From Squalus acanthias (lineage: Eukaryota): a stretch of 64,000 nucleotides of DNA. A model generated the notes under the pieces. That model was not told the origin of the DNA. It made no database searches and worked only from the letters and a program-made list of their open reading frames with translations. This document shows positions 5,983 through 43,697 of this stretch, piece after piece (positions within the stretch are counted from its first letter, which is position 1; each line of letters starts with the position of its first letter). A program made the position numbers and the translations under genes. The stretch lies in assembly GCA_030390025.1 (NCBI GenBank), contig CM059432.1, forward strand, positions 22,880,001 through 22,944,000, given 5' to 3'.

Positions 5983-8900
5983 CATCTTCATCTTCTTAGG
6001 CAGTCCCTCGGAACCGAGGATGACTTGCTTCCACACTAAAAATGAGTTCTCAGGTGACTGATGAGTCCAATGCGGGACCTACAGTCTCTGTCACAGGTGG
6101 GGCAGACGGTGGTTGAAGGGGCAGGTGGGTGGGGTTCTCGGGTTGACGTGCGCTCCTTGCGCTGTTTGCGCTTGGCTTCCGCTTGCTCCCGGCGAAGAGA
6201 CTCGAGGTGTTCCGCGCCTTCCCGGATGCTTGTCCTCCACTTTGTGCGGTCTTGGGCCAGGGATTCCCAGGTGTCGGTGGGGATGTTGCACTTTTTCAAG
6301 GAGGCTTTGAGGGTGCCCTTGATGCGTTTCCTCTGCCCACCTGGGGCTCTCTTGCCGTGTCGGAGCTCCGAGTAGAGCGTTTGTTTTGGGAGTCTCGTAT
6401 CGGGCATGCGGATGATGTGGCCCGTCCATCGGAGCTGATCGAGCGTGGTCAAGGCTTTGATGCTGGGGATGTTGGTCTGAGCGAGAACACTGACGTTGGT
6501 GCACCTATCCTGCCAATGGATTTGCAGGATCTTGCAGAGGCAGTGTTGGTGGTACCTCTCCAGTGCTTTGAGGTGCCTGCTGTACATGGTCCATGTCTCT
6601 GAAGCATACAGGAGGGCGGGTATCACTACTGCTCTGTAGACCATGAGCTTAGTGCTGGGTTTGAGGTCCTGGTCTTCAAACACTCTCTTCCTCAGGCGAC
6701 CGAAGGCTGCACTGGCACACTGAAGGCAGGTGTTGGACTTCGTCATCGACGTCTGCCCTTGTTGACAGTAGGCTCCTGAGGTATGGAAAGTGGTCCACGT
6801 TGTCCAAGGCCTCTTCATGGATTTTGATAATCGGGGAGCAGTACTGTGTGGCGGGGGCAGGTTGGTAGAGGACCTTTGTCTTACGGATGTTTAGTGTAAG
6901 GCCCATGCTCTCGTGCGCTTCGTTGAAGGTGTTGACGATGGTTTAGAGTTCAGCCTCAGAGTGTGCGCAGACGCAAGCGTCGTCTGCATACTGTAATTCG
7001 ATGACAGAGGATGGGACGACCTTGGATCTGGACTGGAGGCGACGGAGGTTGAACAGTTTCCCGTTTGTTCTGTAGATTAGCTCCACTCCAGCGGGGAGCT
7101 TACTGAGGGTGAGATGGAGCATTGCAGCCAGGAAGATCGAGAAGAGCATTGGTGCAATGACACAGAATTGCTTGACCCCGGTCCGTACGTGAATTGGGTC
7201 TGCGGTGGATCTGTTGGTCAGGATCATGGCTTGCATGTCGTCGTGAAGCAGACGGAGGATGGTGACAAACTTTTGAAGGCAGCCGAATTTGAGGAGGACA
7301 CTCCATACTCCCTCATGGTTGATGGTGTCGAAGGCCTTTGTGAGATCAAAGAAGGCCATGTGCAGCGGTTGGTGCTGTTCCCTGCATTTCCCTTGTAGTT
7401 GACGCGCGGTGAAGATCATGTCCATTGTGCCTCTTAGTGGGCAGAATCCGCATTGCGACTCTGGGAGGAGCTCTTCAGCCACTGGGAGAAGGCAATTGAG
7501 GAGCATTCTTGCGATGACTTTTCCTGTGGCAGACAGCAGGGAGACTCCTCTGTAATTACCGCAATCGGACTTGTCACCTTTCTTGAAGATGGTCACGATT
7601 ATGGCGTCTCTGAGATCCCCTGGCATGCTCTCCTCCTTCCAAATAAGAGAAATGAGTTAATGTATTCACGCCAGTAGTACTTCTCCGCCATGTTTTAGCG
7701 CCTCGACGGGGATTCCATCTGCTCCTGAGGCCTTGTTCTTCAGTTGTCGGATGGCCTTTTCAACCTCATGCCGGGCTGCGGTTGTGCTGAGGTGGTGGCG
7801 GGTAGAATGCTGCGGAATGGAGTTGAGGACACTCACCTCGAAGACAGAGTCTCGGTTAAGGAGGTCTTCGAAGTGCTCCTTCCAGCGGGCACTGACTGCC
7901 TCTCTGTCCTTGATGAGTACCTCTCCATTCTTGGCCCGCAGTGGGGTAGGACCTTGGGTGCTTGGGCCGTAGGTGGTCTTGACTGCGCTAAAGAATCCAC
8001 GCATGTCGTGGTTGTCGGCTAGCTGCTGGATCTCCTGCGCTTTCTCCACCCACCATCTGTTCTTTAGGTTGCGAGTTTTTTGTTGGACCTCGGCCTTCAG
8101 GCGTCTGCAGAGCTGCTTTCTTGCCATCGAGTTCTGTTGCTGTTTCCAGATCAGGGATGTCTTGTGCTTGCGGTTTATTAGCTCCTGGATCTCCTGGTCG
8201 TTCTCGTCGAACCAGTCTTGGTGTTTCCTGGTCGAGTGACCGAGCGTCTCTTCACAGGTGCTGATTATGGAGGCCTTGAGTGCAGACCAGGCGCTGTGGA
8301 CACTCTGTGTCTCTGAATCACTGGGAGTTGTCAGGTTGGTTGTGAGGCGCAGGCTGAATAGGGCTTTCTTAGCAGGGTCTTTGAGTGCTCCAGCGTTGAT
8401 TTTCCTGCGGCATTGCTTATGTTGCCACCACTGTTTTGGGGCTACGTTGATAGAGAAGACAGAACGGATTAGGATCTGGTCTGTCCAGTAGTCGTCAGCT
8501 CCTGTCATGGCGCGGGTGATGCGGACTTCCTTGCGTTTCCTCGCTCGGACGATGACGTAGCCCAGCAGATGCCAGTGCTTGGAGCGAGGATACTTATCTC
8601 TCTGACGGAACAAGGTGTTGGTTATGACAAGGCCATGTTCTAAGCATTTCATCAGGAGGAGGGTATCATTGGTGTTGGCTTTCCCTACCCCCTCTGCTGA
8701 TCACACCTCCCCAGAGGTCTGTGTCCTTTTCAACTCTGGCTTTAAAGTCACCAAGGAGGATCAGTTTGTCGCCCATTGGGACTCGGGACAGGAATTGTTC
8801 GAGGCTGGAGTAGAATTCCTCTTTGGTCTCGTCTGTGGCTTCCAGTGTTGGGGGGTACACACTGATGACCGTAGCACACTGGTTCTGGGCTATGGTGAGC

Positions 8901-9012
8901 CGTAGAGTCATGAGGCGTTCGTTTATTCCACAAGGGGTGTCTCTCAGACATTCAAATAGCTTATTTTCTATGGCGAAGCCTACCCCATGGAGGCGGCGTT
9001 CTTCTTCAGGTT
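5983..9012 (-). mobile_element. RTE-clade LINE, 5'-truncated and frameshifted (APE endonuclease, RT, C-terminal C2H2 finger)
   Basis: ORF pieces: LHGVGFAI…ISVYPPT…LILLGDF; HGLVITNT…SKHWHLL; NYRGVSLL…QCGF…FFDLTKAFD…LQYADD; CPTCDRDCRSRIGLISHLRTH. Short 3' UTR ending in AAGAAGATGAAGATG. Confidence 0.92.
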
Positions 9013-11253
9013 TGCATTTCTCATCATCCAATGTCATGTCCACCTGTTCTATCTCCCTGTTAAATACTGAAGCAAAATAATTATTTAATATTTCTGCCAT
9101 CTCTCTATTGTTACCTGTGGTATTATCCTGTCTATCCCTTAATGGCCCTCTTCCCATCCTAACCTTCCTTTTTTTATTGATGTGCCTATAAAATATTTTA
9201 CTATTTTGTTTTATGTTCCTTAAACATTTAATTTCATAGTTCCTCTTTGCCTCCCTAATTGTTTTTTTCACTTCTCTCCTAAACTTTTCGTATTCTCCCT
9301 TATCATGCATTCCCCTGCTGTCTATGTATTTAATGTATGCCTCTTTCCTTACCCTCAGTTGTACCCTTATGGCTTTATTCATCCATGGAGTCTCATCAGT
9401 GTTTAGTTTGTTCTTTCCTTTTAGCGGAATATATTGTTCCTGCACTCTGTTGAACACCGTTTTAAATGTTTCCCATTGCTGTTCGACATTGTTTTTTGCC
9501 AATATTGTTGCCCATTTTTTTCCCCAAGTTCTATTTTCAGCCCCACAAAATCAGCTTTTCTCCAATCTATTACCCTGGATTTTGTCATTCTTATGTCCTT
9601 CTCAATTAACATCTTAAAGCATATTATATTATGGTCACTATTGCCGATATGTTCCCCTACTTTTACTTCTCTTATCTCATTCCCCATAACTAGATCCAAT
9701 AGCAATTCCTCCCTTGTTGGGTTTTTTACATATTGGGTTAGAAAGGAGTCCTGTACACATTGTAGGAACTCCATTCCCTTATCCCCTTTACCTACCTCTT
9801 CTGTCCAATTACTATTGGGGTGGTTGAAATCCCGCATGATTATTATTCTATGTTTTTTATTCATTTCCCTAATTTGTCTGCATATTTCTTCCTCCACTAT
9901 TTGGTGTTCTGTAGACTAGACCTATTAGTGTGATCGATCCTTTATTATCTTTTATCTCTATCCATATGGATTCTATTTTTGTCTTACTGCCATTATGTTA
10001 TCCCTAATAAGTACAGCTATTACACCTCCCCTTTTTCCCTCCCTATCTTTTCTAAATATGTTATACACTGTAATGTTTAATTCCCAGTCCTGATTTTTCT
10101 GTAGCCATGTGTCAGTAATCCCTACTATGTCTGGTTCCTCGCAACGCAAGATTGCCTCCAGCTCCCCTGTTTTATTACGGACACTGTGTGCATTGCTGTG
10201 CAGACAGTTTAACTTATCTTTAATAGGATTTCCTCTCACTTTATGTTTAACCATCTTTTTAGACTCCTGTTCTATAACTCTATTTATTCCCTTGCCATCA
10301 ATGCCCTCCTTTACTTTATTCTTTCCTATGCTCTCTTTTCCTGTTTTGTTTATATTTAGGCTGGTTACATTTCTTGTAGATCCCTCCCCCCATCTCACTA
10401 GTTTAAAGCCTTTGCCACCTCCCTATTTACCCTTTCTGCTAGGACATGGATCCCATCCCGGTTCAGGAGGAGCCTGTCCCATCGGTACAGCTCCTTCCTG
10501 TCCCAGAACTGGTGCCAGTGTTCCATGAAAAGGAACCCCTCTTTCCCACACCAGCCTTCAGCCATGTGTTAATTCTCCTGATCTGTCTGCTTCTATGCCA
10601 ATTTGCACGTGGCTCAGGCAATAATCCAGAGATTATTACCCTCGAGGTCCTGCTTTTTAATTTAGATCCTAACTCCTGATACTCTTTCAGCAGGACCTCC
10701 TCCCTGTTCCTACCTATGTCGTTTTTTCCAACATGGACCATGACAACTGCATTTACCCCCTCCCTTTCCAATATCTTCTCCAGCTGCCATGAGATATCCC
10801 TTACCCTGGCACCGGGTAGGCAACACACCCTTCGGGATTCTCGTTCTTGGCTGCAGAGGATGCTATCTATCCCCCTAATTATAGAGTTCCCTATCACTAC
10901 CATATTTCTATTCTTCTCTTCCCCGCCTTGGACAGCCTTCTGAGCCATGGTGCCTTAGTCTGCATTGTGGCTGTCCTCCCTGAAGTCTTTCTCCTTGTCC
11001 TCACAGGTAGTGAGTACATTGTACCTGTTGGACAGGACCAGTGTCTGCAGGACCTCCTTCTCAACCTCTCCTAAGTCCCGGCAACCCATCTCCCTAACAG
11101 TCACACCCTCCCTTTCCTGAACCTGTGCTTTCCTCTGGGGTGTGACTGTATTGTGGATAAAGCTGTCCAGAAATTCCTCCCCCTCCCTTATGTGACGGAG
11201 TGTCTCCATCTCGCACTCCAGCTCAATGACTCTGAGCTGGAGAGATTCGAGAT

Positions 11254-12759
11254 AGCATAGAAGATAGGAGCAGGAGTAGGCCATTCGGCCCCTCGAGCCT
11301 GCTCCGCCATTCAATAAGATCATGGCTGATCATCCAAATTCAGTACCCTGTCCCTGCTTTCTCCCCATAGCCCTTGATCCCTTTAGCCTTAAGAAAAATA
11401 TCTATCTCCTTCTTGAATATATTTAATGAATTGGCCTCAACTGCCTTCTGTGGTAGAGAATTCCACAGGTTCACCACTCTCTGGGTGAAGAAATTCCTCC
11501 TCATCTCAGTCCTAAATGGCTTACCCCTTATCCTTAGACTGTGACCTCTGGTTCTGGACTCCCCCGCCATCAGGAACATCCTTCCTGCATCTAGTCTGTC
11601 TAGTCCTGTTAGAATTTTATAAGTTTCAATGAGATCCCCTCTCATTCTTCGAAACTCTAGCGATTATAAGCCTAATCGACCCAATCTCTCTTCACACGTC
11701 ATTCCTGCCATCCCAGGTATCAGTCTGGTAAATCTTCGCTGCACTCCCTCCATGGCAAGAACATCATCCTCAGATAAGGCGACCAAAACTGCACACAATA
11801 CTCAAGGTATGGTCTCACCAAGGCCTTGTACAACTGCAGCAAGACATCCTTGCTCCTGTACTCGAATCCTCTCGCTATGAAGGCCAACATACCATTTGCC
11901 TTCTTAACCGCCTGCTGCACCTGTATGCTTACCTTCAGCGACTGGTGCACAAGGACGCCCAGATCTCGTTGCACTTCCCCTTTTCCCAATCTATTGCCAT
12001 TCAGATAATAATCTGTCTTCCTGTTTTTGCCACCAAAGTGGATAACCTCGCATTTATCCACATTATACTGCATCTGCCATGCATCTGCCCAATCACCCAA
12101 CCTGTCCAAATCATACTGGAGTTTCTCTGCATCCTCCTCACAGCACACACGCCCACCCAGCTTTGTGTCATCTGCAAACTTAGAGATATTACATCTAGTT
12201 CCCTCGTCTAGATCATTAATATATATTGTGAATAGCTGGGGTCCTAGCACCGATCCCTGCGGTACCCCACTAGTCACTGCCTGCCATTCGGAAAAAGGCC
12301 CGTTTATTCCAACTCTTTGCTTCCTGTCTGCCAACCAGTTCTCTATCAAAATCAGTACCTTACCCCCAATCCCATGTGCTTTAACTTTGCACGTTAATCT
12401 CTTATGCGGGACCTTATCGAAAGCCTTCTGAAAGTCCAAATACACCACATCCACTGGTTCTCCCTTATCTATTCTACCAGTTACATCCTCAAAAAATTCC
12501 AGTAGATTAGTCAGGCATGATTTACCTTTTGTAAATCCATGTTGACTTTGTCCGATCCTGTCACTGTTTTCCAAGTGCTCTGCTATTACATCTTTTATAA
12601 TGGACTCTAGCATTTTCCCCACAATCGATGTCAGGCTTACAATTCCCCATTTTTTCTCTACCACCTTTTTTAAATAGTGGGGTTAGATTAGCTACCCTCC
12701 AATCCATGGGAACTGTTCCAGAGTCTATAGAATTTTGAAAAATGACCAGCAATGCACTA
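11254..12759 (-). mobile_element. CR1 family C, 5'-truncated, inserted in ORF1 of family B
   Basis: RT motifs [35 protein letters not shown] at 11249-11253 and 12760-12764; host ORF1 rejoins (CLHLESLQLRV) when the insert is removed. Confidence 0.93.
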
Positions 12760-13109
12760 GAGATGGAGACATCTCCTGCAGATGTGTTTGCTCGGGACAG
12801 TCTCGCTGTCCACAAACTCCCACATACTGCAGTCCAGACACACAACCTGCCCTGACATATCTTAGTCTAGCCTTATTTTATTTATTTAATGAGTTAAAAT
12901 CTTTATTCAACGATTATTTATAGTTATATTAATTAGTTTAACTAGTTAAGCTATAAATTTAATACAGTATGCTATGGTTTCCCGCTCCTAGTATAAACCA
13001 CTGTCCTAGGTTAGAGAGAAAAAAAAACTTAATACTCACCAACCAATCACCAACCTGCTGTCCTGTGACATCACACCTTGTTTTTTTTTGGAACTCGTGG
13101 AAAGTTCAG

Positions 13110-13557
13110 CCGTCGCCTCCTCCGATTAGGTCCACACTGTTCCTCCGCTCTCTCCTTTATGTCCCGCCCCTGCCACTGCCTCCAATTGGGCCCGTGCTGT
13201 TCCTCCGCTCTCTCCTTTATGTCCCCCTGCCGCTGCCTCTGATTAGGTCCACACTGTTCCTCCGCTCTCTCCTTTATGTCCCCCTGCCGCTGCCTCCGAT
13301 TAGGTCCACACTGTTCCTCCGCTCTCTCCTTTATGTCCCGCCCCTTCCGCTGCCTCCGATTAGGTCCACACTGTTCCTCCGCTCTCGCTTTATGTCCCGC
13401 CCCTTCCGCTGCCTCCGATTAGGTCCACACTGTTCCTCCGCTCTCTCCTTTATGTCCCGCCCCTTCCGCTGCCTCCGATTAGGTCCACACTGTTCCTCCG
13501 CTCTCTCCTTTATGTCCCGCCCCTGCCGCTGCCTCCGATTAGGTCCGCGCTGTTCCT
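13110..13557 (-). repeat. About 8 tandem 57-60 bp monomers at the 5' end of CR1 family B (putative promoter array)
   Basis: Sense-strand unit GAGGAACAGTGTGGACCTAATCGGAGGCAGCGG(C/A)AGGGGCGGGACATAAAGGAGAGAGCG, with GC box and TATA-like CATAAA. Confidence 0.9.
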
Positions 13558-14926: not shown

Positions 14927-15549
14927 CTTTTTTGCAGAGGCCAGTGTCGGGAGCGGAGAGAGCAGCAGCACAGTGAGTATTTAAACTCACTTTTCGCGGG
15001 CTTTTTTTGCAGAGGCCAGTGTCGGGAGCGGAGAGAGCAGCAGCACAGTGAGTATTTAAACTCACTTTCGCGGGCTTTTTTTGCAGAGGCCAGTGTCGGG
15101 AGCGGAGAGAGCAGCAGCACAGTGAGTATTTAAACTCACTTTCGCGGGCTTTTTTTTGCAGAGGCCAGTGTCGGGAGCGGAGAGAGCAGCAGCACAGTGA
15201 GTATTTAAACTCACTTTCGCGGGCTTTTTTTGCAGAGGCCAGTGTCGGGAGCGGAGAGAGCAGCAGCACAGTGAGTATTTAAACTCACTTTCGCGGGCTT
15301 TTTTTGCAGAGGCCAGTGTCGGGAGCGGAGAGAGCAGCAGCACAGTGAGTATTTAAACTCACTTTCGCGGGCTTTTTTTTGCAGAGGCCAGTGTCGGGAG
15401 CGGAGAGAGCAGCAGCACAGTGAGTATTTAAACTCACTTTCGCGGGCTTTTTTTTGCAGAGGCCAGTGTCGGGAGCGGAGAGAGCAGCAGCACAGTGAGT
15501 ATTTAAACTCACTTTCGCGGGCTTTTTTTGCAGAGGCCAGTGTCGGGAG
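14927..15549 (+). repeat. About 8.4 tandem 74-75 bp monomers at the 5' end of CR1 family A
   Basis: Unit T(6-8)GCAGAGGCCAGTGTCGGGAGCGGAGAGAGCAGCAGCACAGTGAGTATTTAAACTCACTTTCGCGGGC; copies differ only in T-run length. Confidence 0.97.
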
Positions 15550-16002
15550 AGACGAGACCGGAAGCGGACCAGGTGGGAAGCACCCAGGTGAACAGCATTT
15601 AAGGAGGGTGGTGGCTTAAACCCGAGTTCCTACAGAGTAGGAACCCCCACCCGCCCTCCTCCTCTAACCTACTAGTCTTTTAGCAGTCTAAAAACAGAGG
15701 TCACAAATTTTTTGGTCTCAGTTTCTTTTCAGCAGGGCAGGAACCGGGAGGAGCGGGAAGTCGGCGTAGGACCAAGGGGACACAAGACCGGGAAGTCAGC
15801 GAAAGACCAGGGAGGTAAGACTAACTGGTAAGTACTTTCCTCAAACCTTCCTAGAAAGTAAAACTAAAACTAGTGGGATTTGGTTAGTTTAAAAAGGAAT
15901 AAGAGGAGTACAGTATACATTGGTCTAAGTAAGCTTCGGGAAAACAAAAGTCAATAAATAAACTAAAACTAGAAAATTAAAAAGTAATATAAGGGTTAAG
16001 TC

Positions 16003-16950
16003 ATGGCAGTAGAGCTCGGACCTGTGTCATGCTCCTCCTGTAACATGTGGGAAATCAGGGACGCTTCCTGTGTCCCTGACAACCATGTGTGCGGGAAGTG
16101 TGTCCAGCTGCAGCTCATGTGGGACCGCATGACGGCCCTTGAGCTGCGGATGGACTCACTTTGGAGCATCCACGATTCTGAGAGGGTTGTGGATAACACA
16201 TTTAGTGAGTTGGTCACACCGCAGGTTAAGGCCAGCGTAGATAGTACATGGGTGACCAAAAGGCAGAGCAAGGGCAGGAAGGTAGTGCAGAAATCCCCTG
16301 GGGTTGTCTCCCTTAGCAACAGGTTCACCGCCTTAGGTGCTGTTGTCGGGGGGGATGACTCATCGGGGGAAGGCACCAGCAGCCAGGCTCATGGCACCAT
16401 GACTGGCTCTGTTGCAAAGAAGGGAGGGAAAAAGAGTGGCAGGGCTATAGTAATAGGGGATTCGATTGTAAGGGGAATAGATAGGGGTTTCTGTGGTCGC
16501 GACCGAGACTCCAGGATGGTATGTTGCCTCCCTGGTGCAAGGGTCAAGGATGTCTCGGCGCGGGTGCAGAACATTCTGGAGGGGGAGGGGGAACAGCCAG
16601 TTGTCGTGATACATGTTGGTACCAACGACGTAGCTAAAAAAAGGGAAGAGGTCCTACAAGTAGAATTTAGTGAGTTAGGAGCCAAGCTAAAAAGTAGGAC
16701 CTCGAAGGTAGTAATCTCTGGATTACTACCAGTGCCACGTGCTAGTAAGAGTACAGAGAACAGGATAGTTAGGCTAAATACGTGGCTTGAGCAGTGGTGT
16801 AAGAGGGAGGGTTTTAAATTTTTGAGGCATTGGAACCAGTTTTGTGGTAGGTGTGACCTATACAAAAGGGACGGTCTACACCTGTGCAAAGATGGAACTG
16901 ATGTTCTCGGGGTAATTTTTGATAAAGCAGTTCGGGAGCATTTAAACTAG
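16003..16950 (+). CDS. CR1 ORF1p (zinc finger, coiled coil, SGNH-esterase-like domain), 315 aa, intact
   Basis: CSSC…CGKC, IVIGDSIVRG, CCLPGA, HVGTND, DGLHL motifs. Confidence 0.93.
   Translation: MAVELGPVSCSSCNMWEIRDASCVPDNHVCGKCVQLQLMWDRMTALELRMDSLWSIHDSERVVDNTFSELVTPQVKASVDSTWVTKRQSKGRKVVQKSPGVVSLSNRFTALGAVVGGDDSSGEGTSSQAHGTMTGSVAKKGGKKSGRAIVIGDSIVRGIDRGFCGRDRDSRMVCCLPGARVKDVSARVQNILEGEGEQPVVVIHVGTNDVAKKREEVLQVEFSELGAKLKSRTSKVVISGLLPVPRASKSTENRIVRLNTWLEQWCKREGFKFLRHWNQFCGRCDLYKRDGLHLCKDGTDVLGVIFDKAVREHLN
16941..16950 (+). promoter_or_regulatory. Candidate -1 ribosomal frameshift site T_TTA_AAC followed by TAG
   Basis: X_XXY_YYZ heptamer in ORF1 phase; ORF2 lies in the -1 frame; same motif at 10407-10398 (-) and 39891-39900 (+). 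Confidence 0.7.
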
Positions 16951-19892
16951 TATGGCAGGGGGCTAGAAACCTATGTAGTGAAATAGAGGAAAGTGAAAGG
17001 CAGACAGAAATAAATGGTAAAAGGGTGAGGAACAAAAAACAAAGGGCCAAACCAATTCATAAAAAATGTGAGCATAAAAAAAGCCTGAGGGTTTTATACC
17101 TTAATGCGAGAAGCATCAGGAACAAGGTAGATGAATTAGCTGTGGAAATAGAGGTTAATAATTATGATCTAATTGGGATTACGGAAACATGGTTGCAGGG
17201 TGAGCAGGGCTGGGAGCTTAACATACAGGGGTATTCAGTATTTAGGAAGGATCGACAAAAAAGAAAGGGAGGAGGGGTAGTATTGCTGGTAAAAGAAGGG
17301 ATAAATGCAATTGAAAGGAAGGATATTAACTCAGTTAATACAGAATCTATATGGGTGGAGCTAAGAAATAGCGAGGGGCGAAAAACATTAATAGGAGTGG
17401 TATATAGGCCTCCAAATAGTAAAATAGAGGTTGGGGAGGGCATCACGAGGGAAATTAGAGAAGCGTGCAATAAGAGCACAGCTGTCATCATAGGTGACTT
17501 TAACTTACATATAGATTGGAATAGCCTAATCAGTAAAAATAATGAGGAGGAGGAATTCCTTGAGTGTTTAAGGGATGGTTATCTGGATCAATATGTCGAG
17601 GAACCAACTCGGGAACAGGCTATATTGGACTGGGTACTGTGCAATGAGAAGGGACTAATTAGTAATCTTGTTGTACGGGGACCCTTGGGTCAGAGCGATC
17701 ATAACATGATCGATTTCTCACTCGAAATAGAGAGCGAAGAAATTGACTCAGATACTAAGGTCCTGAATTTAAACAAGGGGAATTATGATGCCATTAGACG
17801 GGAACTGAGTAGGTATGATTGGACAACGTTCCTGGGAGGACTGGAGGTAGATAAACAATGGCAAGCATTTAAAGATAGAATGACAAAATTGCAAAAATTG
17901 TTTATACCAATCTGGCATAAAAGGAAATCTAAAAAGGTGACTCAACCGTGGATAACAGGGGAAATTAGAGACAGCATAAAATCCAAAGATAGGGCGTATA
18001 AAATAGCCAAAAAAAGCGCCAGAGCGGAAGATTGGGAACAGTTTAAGATAGAGCAAAGGAGGACAAAGGGCTTAATCAAGAGGGGCAAAATAGCTTACGA
18101 AAGCAAGCTGGCGGAAAATATAAAAACTAACTCCAAAAGCTTTTATAAGTATATCAAGAGGAAAAGACTGGTGAAAACCAAAGTTGGCCCATTGCAGTCA
18201 GATACGGGGGAATATATAACGGGAAATAAAGAAATGGCAGACCAACTAAATGCATACTTTGGGTCAGTCTTTACGAAGGAAGACACAAAAAACCTCCCTG
18301 GGATATCGGGAAAAATAGGGACATTTGCAAAGGAGGAACTGACGCAAGTCAATATCTCTAAGGATATGGTGTTAAGGAAGCTAAAGGGATTGAAGGCGGA
18401 CAAATCCCCAGGGCCTGATAACATGCATCCTAGGGTGCTGAAGGAGGTGGCCCTAGAGATAGCGGATGCACTAAGTATGATTTTTCAGAATTCATTAGAC
18501 TCGGGAACAGTGCCCATGGATTGGAGGGTAGCTAACGTTACCCCACTATTCAAAAAGGGGGGTAGGGAAAAAGCAGGTAATTACAGACCTGTAAGCCTTA
18601 CATCAGTTGTGGGCAAAATGCTGGAGTCCATCATTAAGGATGAAATAGCGGAGCACTTAGCAAATGGGGACAGGATAGGACAGAGTCAACATGGATTTAC
18701 AAAGGGTAAATCGTGCTTGACTAATCTATTGGAATTTTTTGAGGGAGTAACTGGTAAAATAGATGGGGGAGAGCCAGTAGATGTGGTGTACCTGGACTTC
18801 CAAAAGGCCTTCGATAAGGTCCCACATAAATGATTAGCAGGGAAAATTGAAGCTCATGGGATAAAGGGGAAAGTATTGACGTGGACAGAGAACTGGCTGT
18901 CAGATAGAAAACAGAGAGTTGGAATAAACGGCTCATTTTCTGAATGGCAGGCAGTAACAAGTGGGGTACCACAGGGATCTGTCCTGGGTCCCCAGCTGTT
19001 CACAATTTACATTAATGACCTGGATCAGGGAGTCGGATGCAGCATTTCCAAATTTGCAGACGACACTAAACTAGGAGGGGGGGTGGGCTCAGAGGAGGAG
19101 ACCAGGAAGCTCCAGAGCGATTTGGACAGACTGGGTGATTGGGCGGATAAATGGCAGATGCACTATAATGTGGACAAGTGCGAAGTTATCCACCTTGGGT
19201 GCAGGAACGGGAGGGCAAATTATTATTTAAATGGCAATAAATTGGGAGAGGGGGAAGTACAGAGAGACCTGGGTGTTCTTGTACACCAGTCACTGAAGGC
19301 GAGCATGCAGGTGCAACAGGCGATCAAGAAGGCAAACGGTATGCTGGCCTTCATAGCAAAAGGGTTGGAATACAGGAACAGGGATACCTTGCTGCAGCTG
19401 TACAGGGCACTGGTGAGACCACACCTCGAGTACTGTGTACAGTTTTGGTCGCCTCATCTGAGGAAAGATGTTCTTGCCATAGAGGGGGTGCAGCGGCGAT
19501 TCACCAGGCTGATACCAGGAATGGCGGGATTGACCTATGAGGAGAGACTATGTAGTTTAGGGATGTACACACTGGAGTTTAGAAGATTGAGAGGGGACCT
19601 CATAGAAGTGTATAAAATTCTGACAGGTCTAGACAGACTAGATGCAGAAGGAATGTTTCCCTTGGCGGGTGAGAACAGAACTAGAGGACATAATTTAAGG
19701 ATAAGGGCTAAACCATTTAGGACAGAAATGAGGGGGAATTTCTTCACTCAGAGGGTGGTGAACCTGTGGAACTCATTGCCACAGAGGGCAGTGTACGCCA
19801 GCTCATTAAATATATTTAAGAGGGAATTAGATATATTTCTACAGGCAAAAGGGGTTAAGGGTTACGGAGAGAAGGCGGGGACGGGATACTGA
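16947..19892 (+). pseudogene. CR1 ORF2p (APE endonuclease + reverse transcriptase) with one in-frame TGA at 18831-18833
   Basis: [59 protein letters not shown]. Frame open from 16926; ORFs 17025-18833 and 18876-19892 share a frame. Confidence 0.93.
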
Positions 19893-23059: not shown

Positions 23060-25003
23060 ATGTGGTGTATTTGGACTTTCAGAAGGCTTTCGAAAAGGTT
23101 CCGCATAAGAGATTAGCGTGCAAAGTTAAAGCACATGGGATTGGGAGTAAGGTACTGATTTGGATAGAGAACTGGTTGGCAGACAGGAAGCAAAGAGTTG
23201 GAATAAACGGGTCTTTTTCCGAGTGGCACGCAGTGACTAGTGGGGTACTGCAGGGATCGGTGCTAGGACCCCAGTTATTCACAATATATATTAATGACCT
23301 AGACAAGGGAACTAGATGTAATATCTCCAAGTTTGCAGACGACACAAAGCTGGGTGGGCGTGTGTGCTGTGAGGAGGATGCTGAGAAACTCCAGTATGAT
23401 TTGGACAGGTTGGGTGATTGGGCAGATGCATGGCAGATGCAGTATAATGTGGATAAATGCGAGGTTATCCACTTTGGTGGCAAAAACAGGAAGGCAGATT
23501 ATTGGGCCAGAAATTCGGCTGTTGTAAGGCCACCTGAAGTGCCGGTTTCCTGCATGCACTGCGCATGCGCGGGAAACCGGAACTTCCGTTCCCCTGAAGG
23601 GAGGGGTTCAGAAGTCGAACGCGTGCGCGGGAGAGGCAGCGCGCACGCAGCGAACTTCAGGTTTTTTTTCAGGTTTCTCCGGGAAGGTAAGTATGGAGAA
23701 GCTGCACATTTAAAAAGGAGGCACAAGGCCTGTTTTTAACAAGGTAAGTGGTTAATTAATTACAATTTAAAAAAAATTTCAACAGGTTTATCTTTTTTAG
23801 ATACTTTAAAGAAAGGTAAGTTTATTTTTAGCACCGTTAAAAAGTATAATTAATTTTTTCAAAAATTTAAATTTTTGTTTAAAGTAGTTAATTTATTTAA
23901 CTTATAGTTATTTTAAAAATGTGATGTTTTTTTTTAAATTTATTTGAAGTTTAAGTGTGGTTTTGGGGCCGATCTCTATTCATAGATTTGACAGGTCTTC
24001 CTGTCAAATCTATGAATGAAAATGCCCTGCTAGGATTGGCTCTCCATGGCCCACGTGATCCCAGGGGACGCTTCGAACTAACTGCGCCCCTGGGATACAC
24101 AAGCACTGTGCGCCGGCAGCTGCAGGAGGCCCAGGACCTGAAGTACTAATGTGCCCAAAGCACAACTGCAGGCGCGGTAGGCAAGTACGCGCGTGATGCT
24201 TGCACCCGCAGGAAGCCGGAAAGCCGAATTTCTGGCCCATTATCTGAATGGCAATAGATTGGGAGACAGGGAAGTGCAACGAGACCTGGGTGTCCTTGTG
24301 CACCAGTCGCTGAAGGCAAGCATGCAGGTGCAGCAGGCGGTTAAGAAGGCAAATGGTATGTTGGCCTTCATAGCGAGAGGATTCGAGTACAGGAGCAAGG
24401 ATGTCTTGCTGCAGTTGTACAGGGCCTTAGTGAGACCACACCTTGATTATTGTGTGCAGTTTTGGTCGCCTTATCTGAGGAAGGATGTTCTTGCCATGGT
24501 GGGAGTGCAGCGACGATTCACCAGACTGATACCTGGGGTGGCAGGAATGACGTATGAGGAGAGATTGGGTCGATTGGGCTTATATTCACTGGAGTTTAGA
24601 AGAATGAGAGGGAATTTCATTGAAACTTATAAAATTCTAACAGGACTAGACAGACTAGATGCAGGAAGGATGTTCCTGATGGCGGGGGAGTCCAGAACCA
24701 GGGGTCACAGTCTAAGGATAAGGGGTAAGCCATTTAGGACTGAGATGAGGAGGAATTTCTTCACCCAGAGAGTGGTGAACCTGTGGAATTCTCTACCACA
24801 GAAGGCAGTTGAGACCAATTCATTAAATATATTCAAGAAGGAGTTAGATATATTTCTTAAGGCTAAAGGGATCAAGGGATATGGGGAGAAAGCAGGGACA
24901 GGGTACTGAATTTGGATGATCAGCCATTATCTCATTAAATGGTGGAGCAGACTCGAGGGGCCGAATGGCCTACTCCTGCTCCTATCTTCTATGTTTCTAT
25001 GTT
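23060..25003 (+). mobile_element. CR1 family C, 5'-truncated, interrupted by a MITE
   Basis: RT motifs in ORFs 23038-23739 and 24193-24909; (TTTCTATG)n tail; near-identical to 11254-12759. Confidence 0.93.
23504..24238. mobile_element. Harbinger-like MITE, 735 bp
   Basis: TIR GGGCCAGAAATTCGGCT / AGCCGAATTTCTGGCCC; 3-bp TSD ATT; removal restores CR1 GATTATTATCTG. Confidence 0.92.
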
Positions 25004-39734: not shown

Positions 39735-42700
39735 TAATAAGGGCTGGTGTGCGAAAGAGGGGTTCCTTTTCATGGGATATTGGCACCAGTTCTGGGACAG
39801 GAAGGAGCTGTACTGATAGGACGGGCTCCACCTGAACCGGGATGGGACACGTGTCCTAGCGGAAAGGGTAAATAGGGAGGTGGCAAAGGCTTTAAACTAG
39901 TAAGATGGGGGGAGGGATCTACAAGAAACATAACCAGCCTAATTATAAACAAAACAGGAAAAGAGAGCATAGGAAAGAATAAAGTAAGGGAGGACATTGA
40001 TGACAAGGGAATAAATAGAGTTATAGAACAGGAGTCTAAAAAGATGGTTAAATATAAAGTGAGAGGAAATCCTATTAAAAATTAGTTAAACTGTCTGTAC
40101 AGCAATGCACACAGTGTTCGTAATAAAACAGGTGAGCTGGAGACAATCATGCGTTGCAAGGAACCAGACGTAGTAGGGATTACTGAGACATGGCTGCAGA
40201 AAAATTAGGACTGGGGATTAAACATTGCAGGGTATAACATATTTGGAAAAGATAGAGAGGGAAAAAGGGGAGGTGGAGTAGCTGTACTTATTAGGGATAA
40301 CATAATGGTAGTAGAAAAAAGTGACGCAGCGATCAGCCAGACAAAAATAGAATCCATACAGATAGAGATAAAAGATAATAAAGGATCAATCACACTAATA
40401 GGTGTAGTCAACAGACCACCTAATAGTGAAAGGGAGGCGGAGGAAGAAATATGCAGACAAATTAGGGAAATGAGTCAAAAACAGAATAATAAATCATGGG
40501 GGATTTCAACTACCCTGATAATAATTGGACAGAAGAGGTAGGTAAAGGAGATAAGGTAAGGAGTTCCTACAATGTGTACAGGATGCTTTTCTAACCCAAT
40601 TTGTAAAAAGCCCAACAAGGGAGGATTCGCTATTGGATCTAGTAATGAGGAATGAACCAAAGCAGATAAGAGAAGTAAAAGTAGGGGAACATCCAGGAAA
40701 CAGTGAACATAATGGGCCAGAAATTCGGGTCTCCACGGGTGAGTACGCGCAGTGTACTCACCTGTAGACCCAACAAAAGTGCCGGTTTCGCGCCATGCAC
40801 TGCGCATGCGCTGGAAACCGGAACTTCCGTTCCCTTGAAGAAAGGGGTTCGGAAGTCAAACGCGTGCGCCGGAGAGGCAGCGCGTACGCCTGGAACTTCC
40901 ATTTTTTTTCAGGTTTCTCCGTGAGGGTAAGTCCCTAGCAGCTGCGCGTTGAAAAAGCAGGCGCAAGGCCTGCTTTTAACAAGGTAAGTGGTGAATTAAG
41001 TAAAATTTAAACATTTTTTCCACAGGTTTATCTTTTTTAAATACTTTAAAGAAAGGTAAGTTTATTTTTAGTCCCGTTAAAAACTGTAAGTAACTTTTTC
41101 AAAAATTTGAATTTTTGTTTAAAATAGTTAATTTATGTAATTTATAGTTAATTTAAAAATGTGATTTTTTTTTTATTTATTTGAAGTTTTAGTTAGGTTT
41201 TGGGGCCAATCTCTATTCATAGATTTGACAGGTCTTCCTGTCAAATCTATGAATGGAGATTCCCTGCTCCGATTGGCTCTCCATGGCCCACGTGATCCCA
41301 GGGGACGCTTCGAACTAACTGCGCCCCTGGGATATGCAAGCACTGTACACCGGCAGCTGGAGGAGGCCCAGGATCGGAATCCCACGCGGGCCCACAGCAC
41401 AATGGCAGGCGTGCTAGGTAAGTGCAGGTTGGGGGCTTGCACCCGCGGGAAGCCTCCGACCCGAACTTCTGGCCCAATATAATAAACTTTAAGGACATCA
41501 GTATGACGAAAACCAGAGTAATAGATTGGAGAAAAGCTGATTTTGAGGGGTTAAGAATAGAACTTGGGAAAATAAAATGAGCAACAATATTGGCAAACAA
41601 CGATGTAGTACAGCAATGGGAAACATTTAAAATGGTGTTCAACAGAGTGCAGGAACAATATATTCTGCTAAAAGAACAAACTAAACACTAATGAGATTCC
41701 ATGGATGAATAAAGCCATAAGGGTACAACTGAGGGTAAGGAAAGAGGCATACATTAAGTACATAGACAGCAGGGGAGTGCATGATAAGAGATAATACAAA
41801 GAGATTAGGAGAGAAGTCAAAAAACAATTAGGAAGGCAAAGAGGAAATATGAAATTAAATTATCAAGGAACATAAAACAAAATAGTAAAATATTTTACAA
41901 GCACATCAATAAAAAAAGGTTGGGATGGGATTAGGGCCATTAAGGGATAGACAGAATAATCCCACAGGAAACGATAGAGAGATGGCAGAAATATTAAATA
42001 ATTATTTTGCTTCAGTATTTACCAGCGAGATAGAACAGGTGGACATGACATTGGATTAGTAATGAGATAAGTACATTTAAAATAAAAACAGGAGATATAT
42101 TTAATAAACTAATCAAACTCAAAGAGGATAAAACCCCTGATCCGATGAATTGCATTTACGCATTTTAAAATAATCTAGGGAAGAGATAGCAGAGGCATTA
42201 CTACACATATTTAATAATTCGTTAGAAAAAGGTGTAGTGCCAGAGGACTGGTGGATAGCTAACATAATACCGATATTTAAGAAGGGAGATAGAACATGTC
42301 CAGGGAATTATAAACCAGTCAGCTTAACATCGGTGGTAGGAAAAATAATGGAATCCCTACTAAAGGAGAAAATAGAAGAACATCTAGAAACCAAAAATAT
42401 AGCAATGACTAGTCAGCATAGATTTCAAAAGGGAAAGTCTTGCTTGACCAACCTCATTGAATTTTCTGAAGAGGTAACAGAGAGAGTAGACAATGGTAAT
42501 GCAGTAGATGTAATTTATCTAGATTTTCAAAAGGCCTTTGATAAGGTACCCCATAATAGACTGATGAACAAGGTCAGAGAATGCAGAGCCAGGGGACAAG
42601 TAGCTGAATGGATAGCTAGCTGGCTTCAAGACAGAAAGCAGAGAGTAGGGGTAAAAGGTAGCTATTCACAGTGGCAGAAGGTGGGTAGTGGTGTTCCACA

Positions 42701-43697
42701 AGGATCAGTGCTGGGACCACTGCTGTTCACAATTTACATTAATGATTTAGACTTTGGAATCAAAAACACAATTTCTAAATTTGCAGATGACACCAAATTG
42801 GGGGGGATAGTCAATACTGAGGAGGACTGCAACAAATTATGGAAGAACATTAATAAACTTGCAGAATGGGCATATAATTGGCAAATGAAGTTCAACACAG
42901 ATAAATGTGAGGTATTACATTTTGGCAGGAAGTATAGGGAGGTCACTTATTACTTGGAGGGTGCGAGTCTAGGTGGGGTAGAGGAACAAAGGGATCTCGG
43001 AGTACAAATACACAAATCACTAAAAGTTGCGACATAGGTTAGCAAGGCCATAAAAAAAGCAAACCAAGCACTAGAGTTTATTTCTAGAGGTACAGAATTG
43101 AAAAGCAGGGAAGTTATGCTAAACCTGTATCGAACCTTGGTTAGACCACAGTTAGGAGTACTGCGTACAGTACTGGTCGCCATATTATAAAAAGGCACTT
43201 GAGAGCGTGCAGAGAAGATTTACAAGGATGATACCAGAAATGTGAGGGTATACGTATCAGGAAACGATGAACAGGCTGGGTCTCTTTTCTCTTGAAAAAA
43301 GGCTGAGGGGTGACCTAATAGAGGTCTTGAAAATTATGAAAGATTTTGATAGAGTGGATACAGAGAAAATGTTTCCACTTGTGGGGAAGAGCATAACTAG
43401 AGACCATCAATATAAGATAGTCACCAAGAAATCCAATAGGGAATTCAGAAGAAACTTCTTTACCCAAAGAGTGGTGAGAATGTGGAACTCGCTACCAATA
43501 GAAGCAAATAGTATAGATGCATTTAAGGGGAGGCTAGATAAGCATATGAGAGAGAAGGGGATAGAGGGTTATGCTGATAGATTTAGATGAGGAAAGAGGG
43601 GAGGAGGCTCGAGTGGACCATAAATGCCGGCATGGGCTGGTTGGGCCGAATGGCCTGTTTCTGTGCCGTATATCCTATGTAATCCTATGTAATCCTA
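39735..43697 (+). mobile_element. CR1 family B, truncated within ORF1, decayed ORF2, with MITE insertion
   Basis: ORF1 end DGLHLN…KALN*, endonuclease, RT ORF 42237-43037, tail (ATCCTATGTA)n. Confidence 0.92.
40714..41475. mobile_element. Harbinger-like MITE, same family as 23504-24238
   Basis: TIR GGGCCAGAAATTCGGGT / ACCCGAACTTCTGGCCC; TSD AAT. Confidence 0.92.

Follow-up and report, generated by a model that had tools for sequence, protein, structure and literature searches.

How the second open reading frame of a CR1 LINE comes to be translated is the question raised by the DNA studied here, a window of 64,000 nucleotides from Squalus acanthias in which ORF2 continues in the -1 frame where ORF1 ends. 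For vertebrate LINEs, translation of ORF2 is usually modeled as reinitiation. The translation of LINE ORF2 is described as an open question in the portion of PMC3894237 that was available. Judged from sequence, esterase-type CR1 LINEs probably carry a programmed -1 frameshift site where ORF1 and ORF2 meet, which would yield an ORF1-ORF2 fusion.

CR1 copies and junctions in the window

Three copies carry the junction, one of family A and two of family B (B1 and B2), and their features are collected in Table 1. The sequence TTTAAACTAGT matches exactly at 39891-39901 (+, B1), 10407-10397 (-, B2), and 16941-16951 (+, A). A first-pass annotation of the same DNA had placed the family B motif at 39891 (+) and 10407 (-), and it is exact at both. 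The longer pattern TTTAAACTAR-N7-GGGGG has three exact occurrences in the window, which are the A, B1, and B2 junctions, and none in 100 shuffles. Matches with one mismatch at 23878 and 31497 were rejected, as neither is an ORF junction. Each of the three copies has an ORF1 C-terminus of Leu-Asn-stop. There, T TTA AAC, divided as ORF1 is read, has the form of an X XXY YYZ heptamer with the stop codon immediately 3', and the -1 frame consists of a stop, five codons, and then TTT AAA CTA. The continuation of ORF2 in the -1 frame after the end of ORF1, as first annotated, is seen in all three.

Table 1. Positions of CR1 features within the window.
Feature	Position	Strand	Basis
Family A ORF1, intact, 315 aa, SGNH esterase, end ...VREHLN-stop	16003..16950	+	
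Family A junction: heptamer 16941-16947, TAG, 7 nt, G5 16958-16962	16941..16962	+	
Family A ORF2, -1 frame, one internal stop 18831-18833	16926..19892	+	
B1 ORF1 3' remnant (SGNH esterase end), ...VAKALN-stop	39745..39900	+	tblastn to family A ORF1, 49%; translation
B1 heptamer T TTA AAC, ORF1 frame	39891..39897	+	
B1 ORF1 stop TAG, immediately 3' of heptamer	39898..39900	+	
B1 G5 run, +11..+15, 10-nt spacer, candidate 3' element	39908..39912	+	
B1 upstream stop of -1 frame, bounding possible frame switch; distance unconserved	39873..39875	+	
Stem proposed in first-pass annotation, unsupported	39900..39922	+	
B1 ORF2, decayed (linker, APE endonuclease, RT), -1 start; insertion ~40710-41480	39891..43581	+	
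KKMVK ATG, codon 52 of -1 frame, possible family B reinitiation codon	40044..40046	+	
B1 3' terminal tandem repeat ATCCTATGTA x2.6	43672..43697	+	
B2 junction: heptamer 10407-10401, TAG 10400-10398, G5 10390-10386	10386..10407	-	
B2 ORF1, decayed, one frame break, SGNH esterase	10398..11251	-	
B2 ORF2 5' part; -1 frame open, heptamer to endonuclease	9053..10407	-	

Both families possess the canonical CR1 features, namely an esterase ORF1, an ORF2 with APE endonuclease and reverse transcriptase (RT), and a 3' tandem repeat without poly(A). In this they are like the canonical vertebrate CR1 described, with its terminal microsatellite, in the parts of PMC13343379, PMC4120745, and PMC4316615 that were available. 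Family A is nearly intact, with Pfam matches to PF13472 in ORF1 (1e-10) and to PF14529, PF03372, and PF00078 in ORF2, and TTCTATGT at its 3' end. The first Met of its -1 frame is codon 256, at the endonuclease end, leaving no AUG before the endonuclease. Family B was matched less evenly. PF13472 was found in B2 ORF1 at 3.5e-4, weaker than the curated cut-off, and PF00078 in the B1 RT; the endonucleases were detected by tblastn only. A profile matches the ORF1 esterase 4c1b at 4.6e-46. The -1 frame of B1 has a stop at codon 65, attributable to decay, and that of B2 is open as far as the endonuclease.

The flanks of B1 and B2 are nearly identical (56/60 and 57/60). These two copies are one family and therefore one lineage, so that the window holds two independent lineages, A and B, and not three. 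A and B1 share 31/60 positions upstream, 24/60 downstream, and 3/7 in the spacer, which agrees with the earlier remark that the flanks of the two families are quite different. RT identity is 59% between A and B, 56-57% between A and the bird-type loci L004 and L010, and, likewise as pairwise values, 36% and 26% between A and the teleost sequences P0282 and P0283. By eye, the family B junction closely matches the consensus SquAca_CR1-22 in the portion of the PMC13343379 supplement that was covered.

Other repeats surround these copies. Tandem arrays lie at 14928-15549 (75-bp, x8.4) and 13119-13557 (60-bp, x7.4). The first starts the family A 5' UTR and includes TATTTAAAC. The second is upstream of a minus-strand ORF1 N-terminal fragment (12852-12760), so that the two elements stand head to head. 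TTTAAACTAR also occurs at 15884-15893 (-). An element of ~750 bp is present twice, at ~40710-41480 (+) and 23505-24240 (+), 86% identical and each time within a CR1 ORF2. The former copy has short inverted ends, GGGCCAGAAATTCGG ... CCGAACTTCTGGCCC, and an apparent 3-bp AAT duplication, and the element looks like a non-autonomous DNA transposon. At 11251-12770 (-), an A-like CR1 3' tail (~82% at the amino acid level to family A RT) is directly joined to B2 ORF1. This join, with B2 lacking a 5' end, is a nested insertion or a chimera. B2 ORF2 ends abruptly at ~9026 against another LINE, ~6960-9025 (-), whose RT is ~25% identical to that of CR1.

Conservation of the junction beyond the window

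A metagenome scan that used the upstream peptide VCCLPGA as its key, and was independent of the motif, returned 54 loci, 29 without and 25 with a match to the ORF1 tail. Of the 25, 17 could be anchored, 4 stopped short of the junction, and 4 had lost register through indels or a contig end. These last four, L004 TTTAAACTAG, L037 TTTAAACAAG, L002 (degraded), and L001 (cut at GGGCTT), were excluded from the counts. By similarity the 17 anchored loci are of the amniote type; they are decayed, and one assembly supplied most of them.

When these loci and the three window junctions were anchored on the ORF1 protein tail, T-TTA was found in 20/20 junctions, and in 15/15 lineages after thinning to <80% identity. 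Upstream Leu codons of the same tails are TTA in only 7/95. The codon preceding the Leu ends in T in 20/20, through six different codons (GCT, TCT, TGT, GTT, ACT, CAT). The full TTTAAAC is present in 16/20, so that the proposed fixation of TTA AAC after a T holds without exception for T-TTA and less completely for the whole heptamer; an X XXY YYZ heptamer is found in A, B1, B2, and 13/17 other junctions. AAC by itself is uninformative, because it makes up 9/10 of the Asn codons in family A ORF1. Free synonymous variation at the Leu-Asn codons, which would have spoken against the first-pass annotation, was not seen. The junction is real, and the proposal made there that it is under nucleotide-level selection is strongly supported, well beyond the window. 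Conservation at synonymous positions is also a hallmark of -1 frameshift signals.

An uninterrupted -1 frame reaches the endonuclease in L003, L005, L009, L010, A, and B2, the other loci being cut short or decayed. A -1 stop lies 1 to 5 codons upstream of the heptamer in 13/20 junctions, and therefore any frame switch would be confined to the heptamer spot. The five-codon overlap that had been described as shared holds for A, B1, B2, and L034; elsewhere the distance ranges from 1 to 37 codons, and the overlap was rejected as a signal.

Published consensuses extend the host range. In Supplementary Table 2 of PMC13343379, of which approximately the first 400 letters per consensus were covered, TTTAAAC followed by TAG, TAA, or TGA occurs at 23 places in CR1-group consensuses, 18 of them at ORF1 ends as judged by eye. 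The hosts, read from name prefixes, are sharks, rays, chimaera, bowfin, another bony fish, coelacanth, frog, lizard, and crocodilians. None of six synonymous spellings with TAG (14 places) and none of three spellings with a different base before TTA (10 places) marked an ORF1 end in the covered part of this supplement. Two more consensus junctions, ScyCan_CR1-13 and AquChr_CR1-5, are imperfect in these noisy consensuses with dropped columns, and the figures count places, not a share of all consensuses. The conserved core is therefore not TTTAAACTAGT, as first annotated, but TTTAAAC plus any stop codon, and its final T was not supported as a conserved position.

Protein endings point in the same direction. 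Among 260 ORF1 homologues, those with names being mostly from sharks and rays, 182 extend to the esterase end. Found with search profiles that themselves ended in LN, 114/182 have a terminal Asn (LN 98, GN 10, KN 2, SN 2, EN 1, FN 1); it is missing in 68/182, including teleost esterases. If LN is encoded as T TTA AAC, the residue before it needs a T-ending codon. Residues E/K/M/Q/W precede LN in 1/98 sequences versus 94/490 at positions -4 to -8 (p = 2e-7), a comparison imperfectly matched, as E/K/M/Q/W are scarce at several buried positions (-6, -7, -9, -10) too; after thinning the count is 0/45. The preceding residue is otherwise chemically incoherent, with twelve kinds from Gly to Tyr, among them A, G, Y, T, S, C, D, F, N, H, and V. 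The residue before GN is Q or S and that before KN is S, which fits G GGA AAC and A AAA AAC as predicted from protein only. The portion of PMC5009743 that was available names four heptamers as the shiftiest, and U_UUA_AAC, G_GGA_AAC, and A_AAA_AAC are three of them. With its codons predicted from protein, this LN/GN/KN switch ranks as the most specific evidence for a slippery heptamer.

A few further homologues deserve mention. Distant ORF1s ending in FFH, FFR, or FFN (P0169, P0185, P0217, P0237) could reflect a U-rich slippery site. CR1 ORF1s were also found under misleading database names (P0009, P0024, P0057, P0058), one as Pseudomonas aeruginosa, likely by contamination, and the others as ribosomal protein S24 or transmembrane protein 204 isoforms. 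In gene models from a ray and a turtle (P0035, P0155) the ORF1 tail continues into F-K-L; these models show the same DNA read in -1, not expression. A search for long fused proteins found three, none of the GN type. In prokaryote genomes the A4 search had no match, and the GN-type alignment gave five loci with no CR1 ORF2 nearby. Two loci in bacterial genome bins, L055 and L056, have a distant esterase-like ORF (24-28% to the GN-type alignment), also with no CR1 ORF2 nearby. No relative was found among viral contigs and plasmids, and none of these searches yielded DNA of a GN- or KN-ending family.

The region downstream of the heptamer

The downstream G-run noticed at first in the window is real and is conserved beyond it. 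Among the 18 junctions that are long enough, G5 is complete at +11..+15, after a 10-nt spacer, in 14. Codon 6 of the -1 frame has G in third position in 18/18, while encoding six different amino acids. At codon 7, GGG is found in 16/18, versus 59/122 Gly codons of the ORF1 tails. Since codon 6 is G-ending and codon 7 shows this excess, the G5 run also looks conserved at the nucleotide level. In the published consensuses, where columns were dropped, G5 is exactly placed in 6/18 junctions and shifted or missing in the others in the part covered.

RNA structure was not found in support. The stem GTAAGAT...ATCTAC, which the first-pass annotation had drawn around the G-rich loop, exists as letters in B1 (GTGAGAT in B2), but its helix is absent from predicted folds and is not conserved. 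In a 12-sequence alignment 38.9% of its cells are paired; shuffling gives 35.4% and sliding as much as 44%. The stem has its 5' end within the stop codon, 2 nt from the heptamer. Its covariation was nominal (12/500 shuffles), but slid controls equalled or exceeded the score. RNAalifold predicted no pairs downstream of the junction, and local folds of the A, B1, and B2 junctions were no better than shuffles. Across 17 junctions, one computed z-score was below -2 and a G-quadruplex was predicted in 2/17. Among 8 elements, the top long-range partners lack homology to one another and none is shared. Thus, nested folds, G4-aware folds, and duplex scans found no stimulatory stem-loop or pseudoknot 5-9 nt downstream, and nothing in the window matched Rfam. 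A hairpin of 6-7 bp (CAGGC...GCCTG) is present at ~+28 to +55 from the heptamer in some bird-type loci, L003, L016, and L022. It is too distant for a classical stimulator, and the shark copies lack it.

In its heptamer, frame, and conservation, then, the junction appears to be like a -1 frameshift site, but the downstream structure of a canonical signal was not found. A short motif ~10 nt 3' of the heptamer, as in PRRSV, is present in the form of G5. In PRRSV nsp2, according to the available part of PMC7618472, a conserved motif rich in a single base replaces RNA structure 10 nt downstream, as G5 may do in CR1. The PRRSV motif is C-rich and bound by PCBP and nsp1beta, whereas the CR1 motif is G5 and is known from sequence; the match in 10-nt spacing is an analogy, not evidence. 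As G5 has no conserved pairing partner, it would, if stimulatory, most likely be a protein-binding or ribosome-contact motif.

Translation of CR1 ORF2

With a programmed -1 frameshift, most ribosomes would terminate directly after U_UUA_AAC, which sets ORF1p free. A minority, holding tRNA-Leu and tRNA-Asn on the heptamer, would move back by one base and then read ORF2. The fusion product would have ~1,296 aa in family A, and the predicted junction peptides are EHLN/LVWQGAR (A) and KALN/LVRWGEG (B). Such frameshifting would fix a low ORF2:ORF1 ratio, like Gag-Pol frameshifting.

The main alternative is termination-reinitiation, in which ribosomes that have terminated at the end of ORF1 resume translation close by, at an AUG or near-cognate codon of the ORF2 frame. 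On this view TTTAAAC-stop-N7-G5 would signal termination or 40S retention, and ORF2p would be made separately. The strongest result against frameshifting belongs here, since codon 5 of the -1 frame, 2 nt past the stop, is start-like in 11/20 junctions (ATG 6/20, GTG 3/20, TTG 2/20). L034 has a TAATG stop-start, and the in-frame ATG that had been noted as a caveat before the family B endonuclease (KKMVK, Table 1) was confirmed. Reinitiation is also the published model for SART1 and mammalian L1, and a caliciviral case tolerates changes of start codon, in the available text of PMC5972666. The missing frameshift stimulator in the fold and duplex scans favors it too. However, codon 5 is TGG, AGA, TCG, or GAC in the other 9/20, including A, B1, and B2, and it is TCG, CCG, or TCA in three crocodilian consensuses of the covered supplement. 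A conserved start codon beside or overlapping the stop, of the SART1 type, was not found, and it is absent in A, B1, and B2, where the ATG nearest the stop in A and B1 is in the +1 frame. Reinitiation predicts neither the X XXY YYZ pattern nor the LN/GN/KN switch. As the sole explanation it appears unlikely, and frameshifting and reinitiation could both operate.

A role in DNA or pre-mRNA is very improbable. The motif would be an internal promoter element, a splice acceptor, or a site of polymerase slippage, giving a separate or frame-corrected ORF2 mRNA. Two published shark CR1 consensuses (SquAca_CR1-18 and SquAca_CR1-3, in the covered part of the supplement) have TTTAAACTAR in the 5' UTR with a G-rich stretch after it, TATTTAAAC lies within the family A 5' tandem repeat, and in one RNA run 14 reads start at 16935, against a depth of 62. 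On the other side, the position of the motif is fixed relative to the ORF1 frame and stop, and in family A an mRNA that began at the junction would lack an AUG ahead of the endonuclease. Two RNA runs over 16700-17220 had no splice joints, indels, or depth step past the junction, which is weak evidence because the reads are on both strands and from many copies. Two DNA read runs gave 7 and 0 reads.

Least probable of all is that Leu-Asn is required at the esterase helix end, with codons inherited and the -1 phase incidental: the junction Leu (Leu167) is the last helical residue in a predicted model and may be packed, AAC is common in family A ORF1, and all elements share an ancestor, but other Leu codons in the tails vary freely, the wobble T before the Leu is fixed over six codons, the preceding residue is incoherent yet avoids E/K/M/Q/W, the RTs are just 56-59% identical, and the fold is independent of LN because the solved L2-type ORF1 esterase 4c1b and teleost homologues have the same helix end without it.

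Frameshifting, the preferred reading, has precedents. In the available parts of PMC5009743 and PMC7618472, IBV and other coronaviruses are like CR1 in having U_UUA_AAC in the correct frame and the polymerase ORF in -1. CR1 differs in having no pseudoknot or stem-loop 5-9 nt downstream, in its stop directly after the heptamer, and in being a LINE and not a virus. Closer in kind are TRE5-A and TRE3-A of Dictyostelium, for which a -1 frameshift is stated to be needed for ORF2 translation, with no shift site or experiment given in the available text (PMC5911963). They are APE-type LINEs like CR1 and differ in lineage, ORF1, and tRNA-gene targeting. SART1, with UAAUG coupling, and L1, with reinitiation, are like CR1 in having a bicistronic LINE RNA and low ORF2 output (available parts of PMC5972666, PMC3894237, and PMC5009743). 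They are also like some amniote-type CR1 copies in having a start codon beside the stop. They are unlike the frameshift reading of CR1 in having a separate ORF2p and no slippery heptamer, with a 63-nt spacer in L1.

Thus, a -1 frameshift has already been stated for Dictyostelium non-LTR elements, and for CR1 no earlier report was found in the literature searched. Neither the main texts of PMC4120745 and PMC4316615 nor the searchable supplement of PMC13343379 contain the word "frameshift". In the available text of PMC13343379 "translat" and "overlap" are absent and passages with "frame" concern other matters. The available parts of PMC8665684, PMC4255032, and PMC3905857 had nothing on CR1 ORF2 translation. 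No report of a CR1 slippery site or frameshift was found in the literature searched; the founding CR1 papers of 1997-2003 (Haas 1997 and 2001, Kajikawa 1997, Kapitonov and Jurka 2003) or the Repbase entries may mention the overlap.

Overall, the interpretation given in the first-pass annotation is partly supported. A wider reading is tentative and as a whole somewhat doubtful. It holds that jawed-vertebrate CR1 and the distant GN/KN group have kept a Gag-Pol-like -1 fusion for >400 million years, with esterase ORF1p fused to endonuclease-RT, stimulated by a protein-bound G5 that would replace RNA structure at a fixed 10-nt spacer. The G5 binder might be a host G-run protein or ORF1p itself, in which case the level of ORF1p would control ORF2 output.

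If frameshifting is true, the CR1 replication protein would be an ORF1-ORF2 fusion and annotated CR1 ORF2 starts would be wrong. The junction would be a natural frameshift signal without RNA structure, and host anti-frameshifting factors could restrict CR1 elements.
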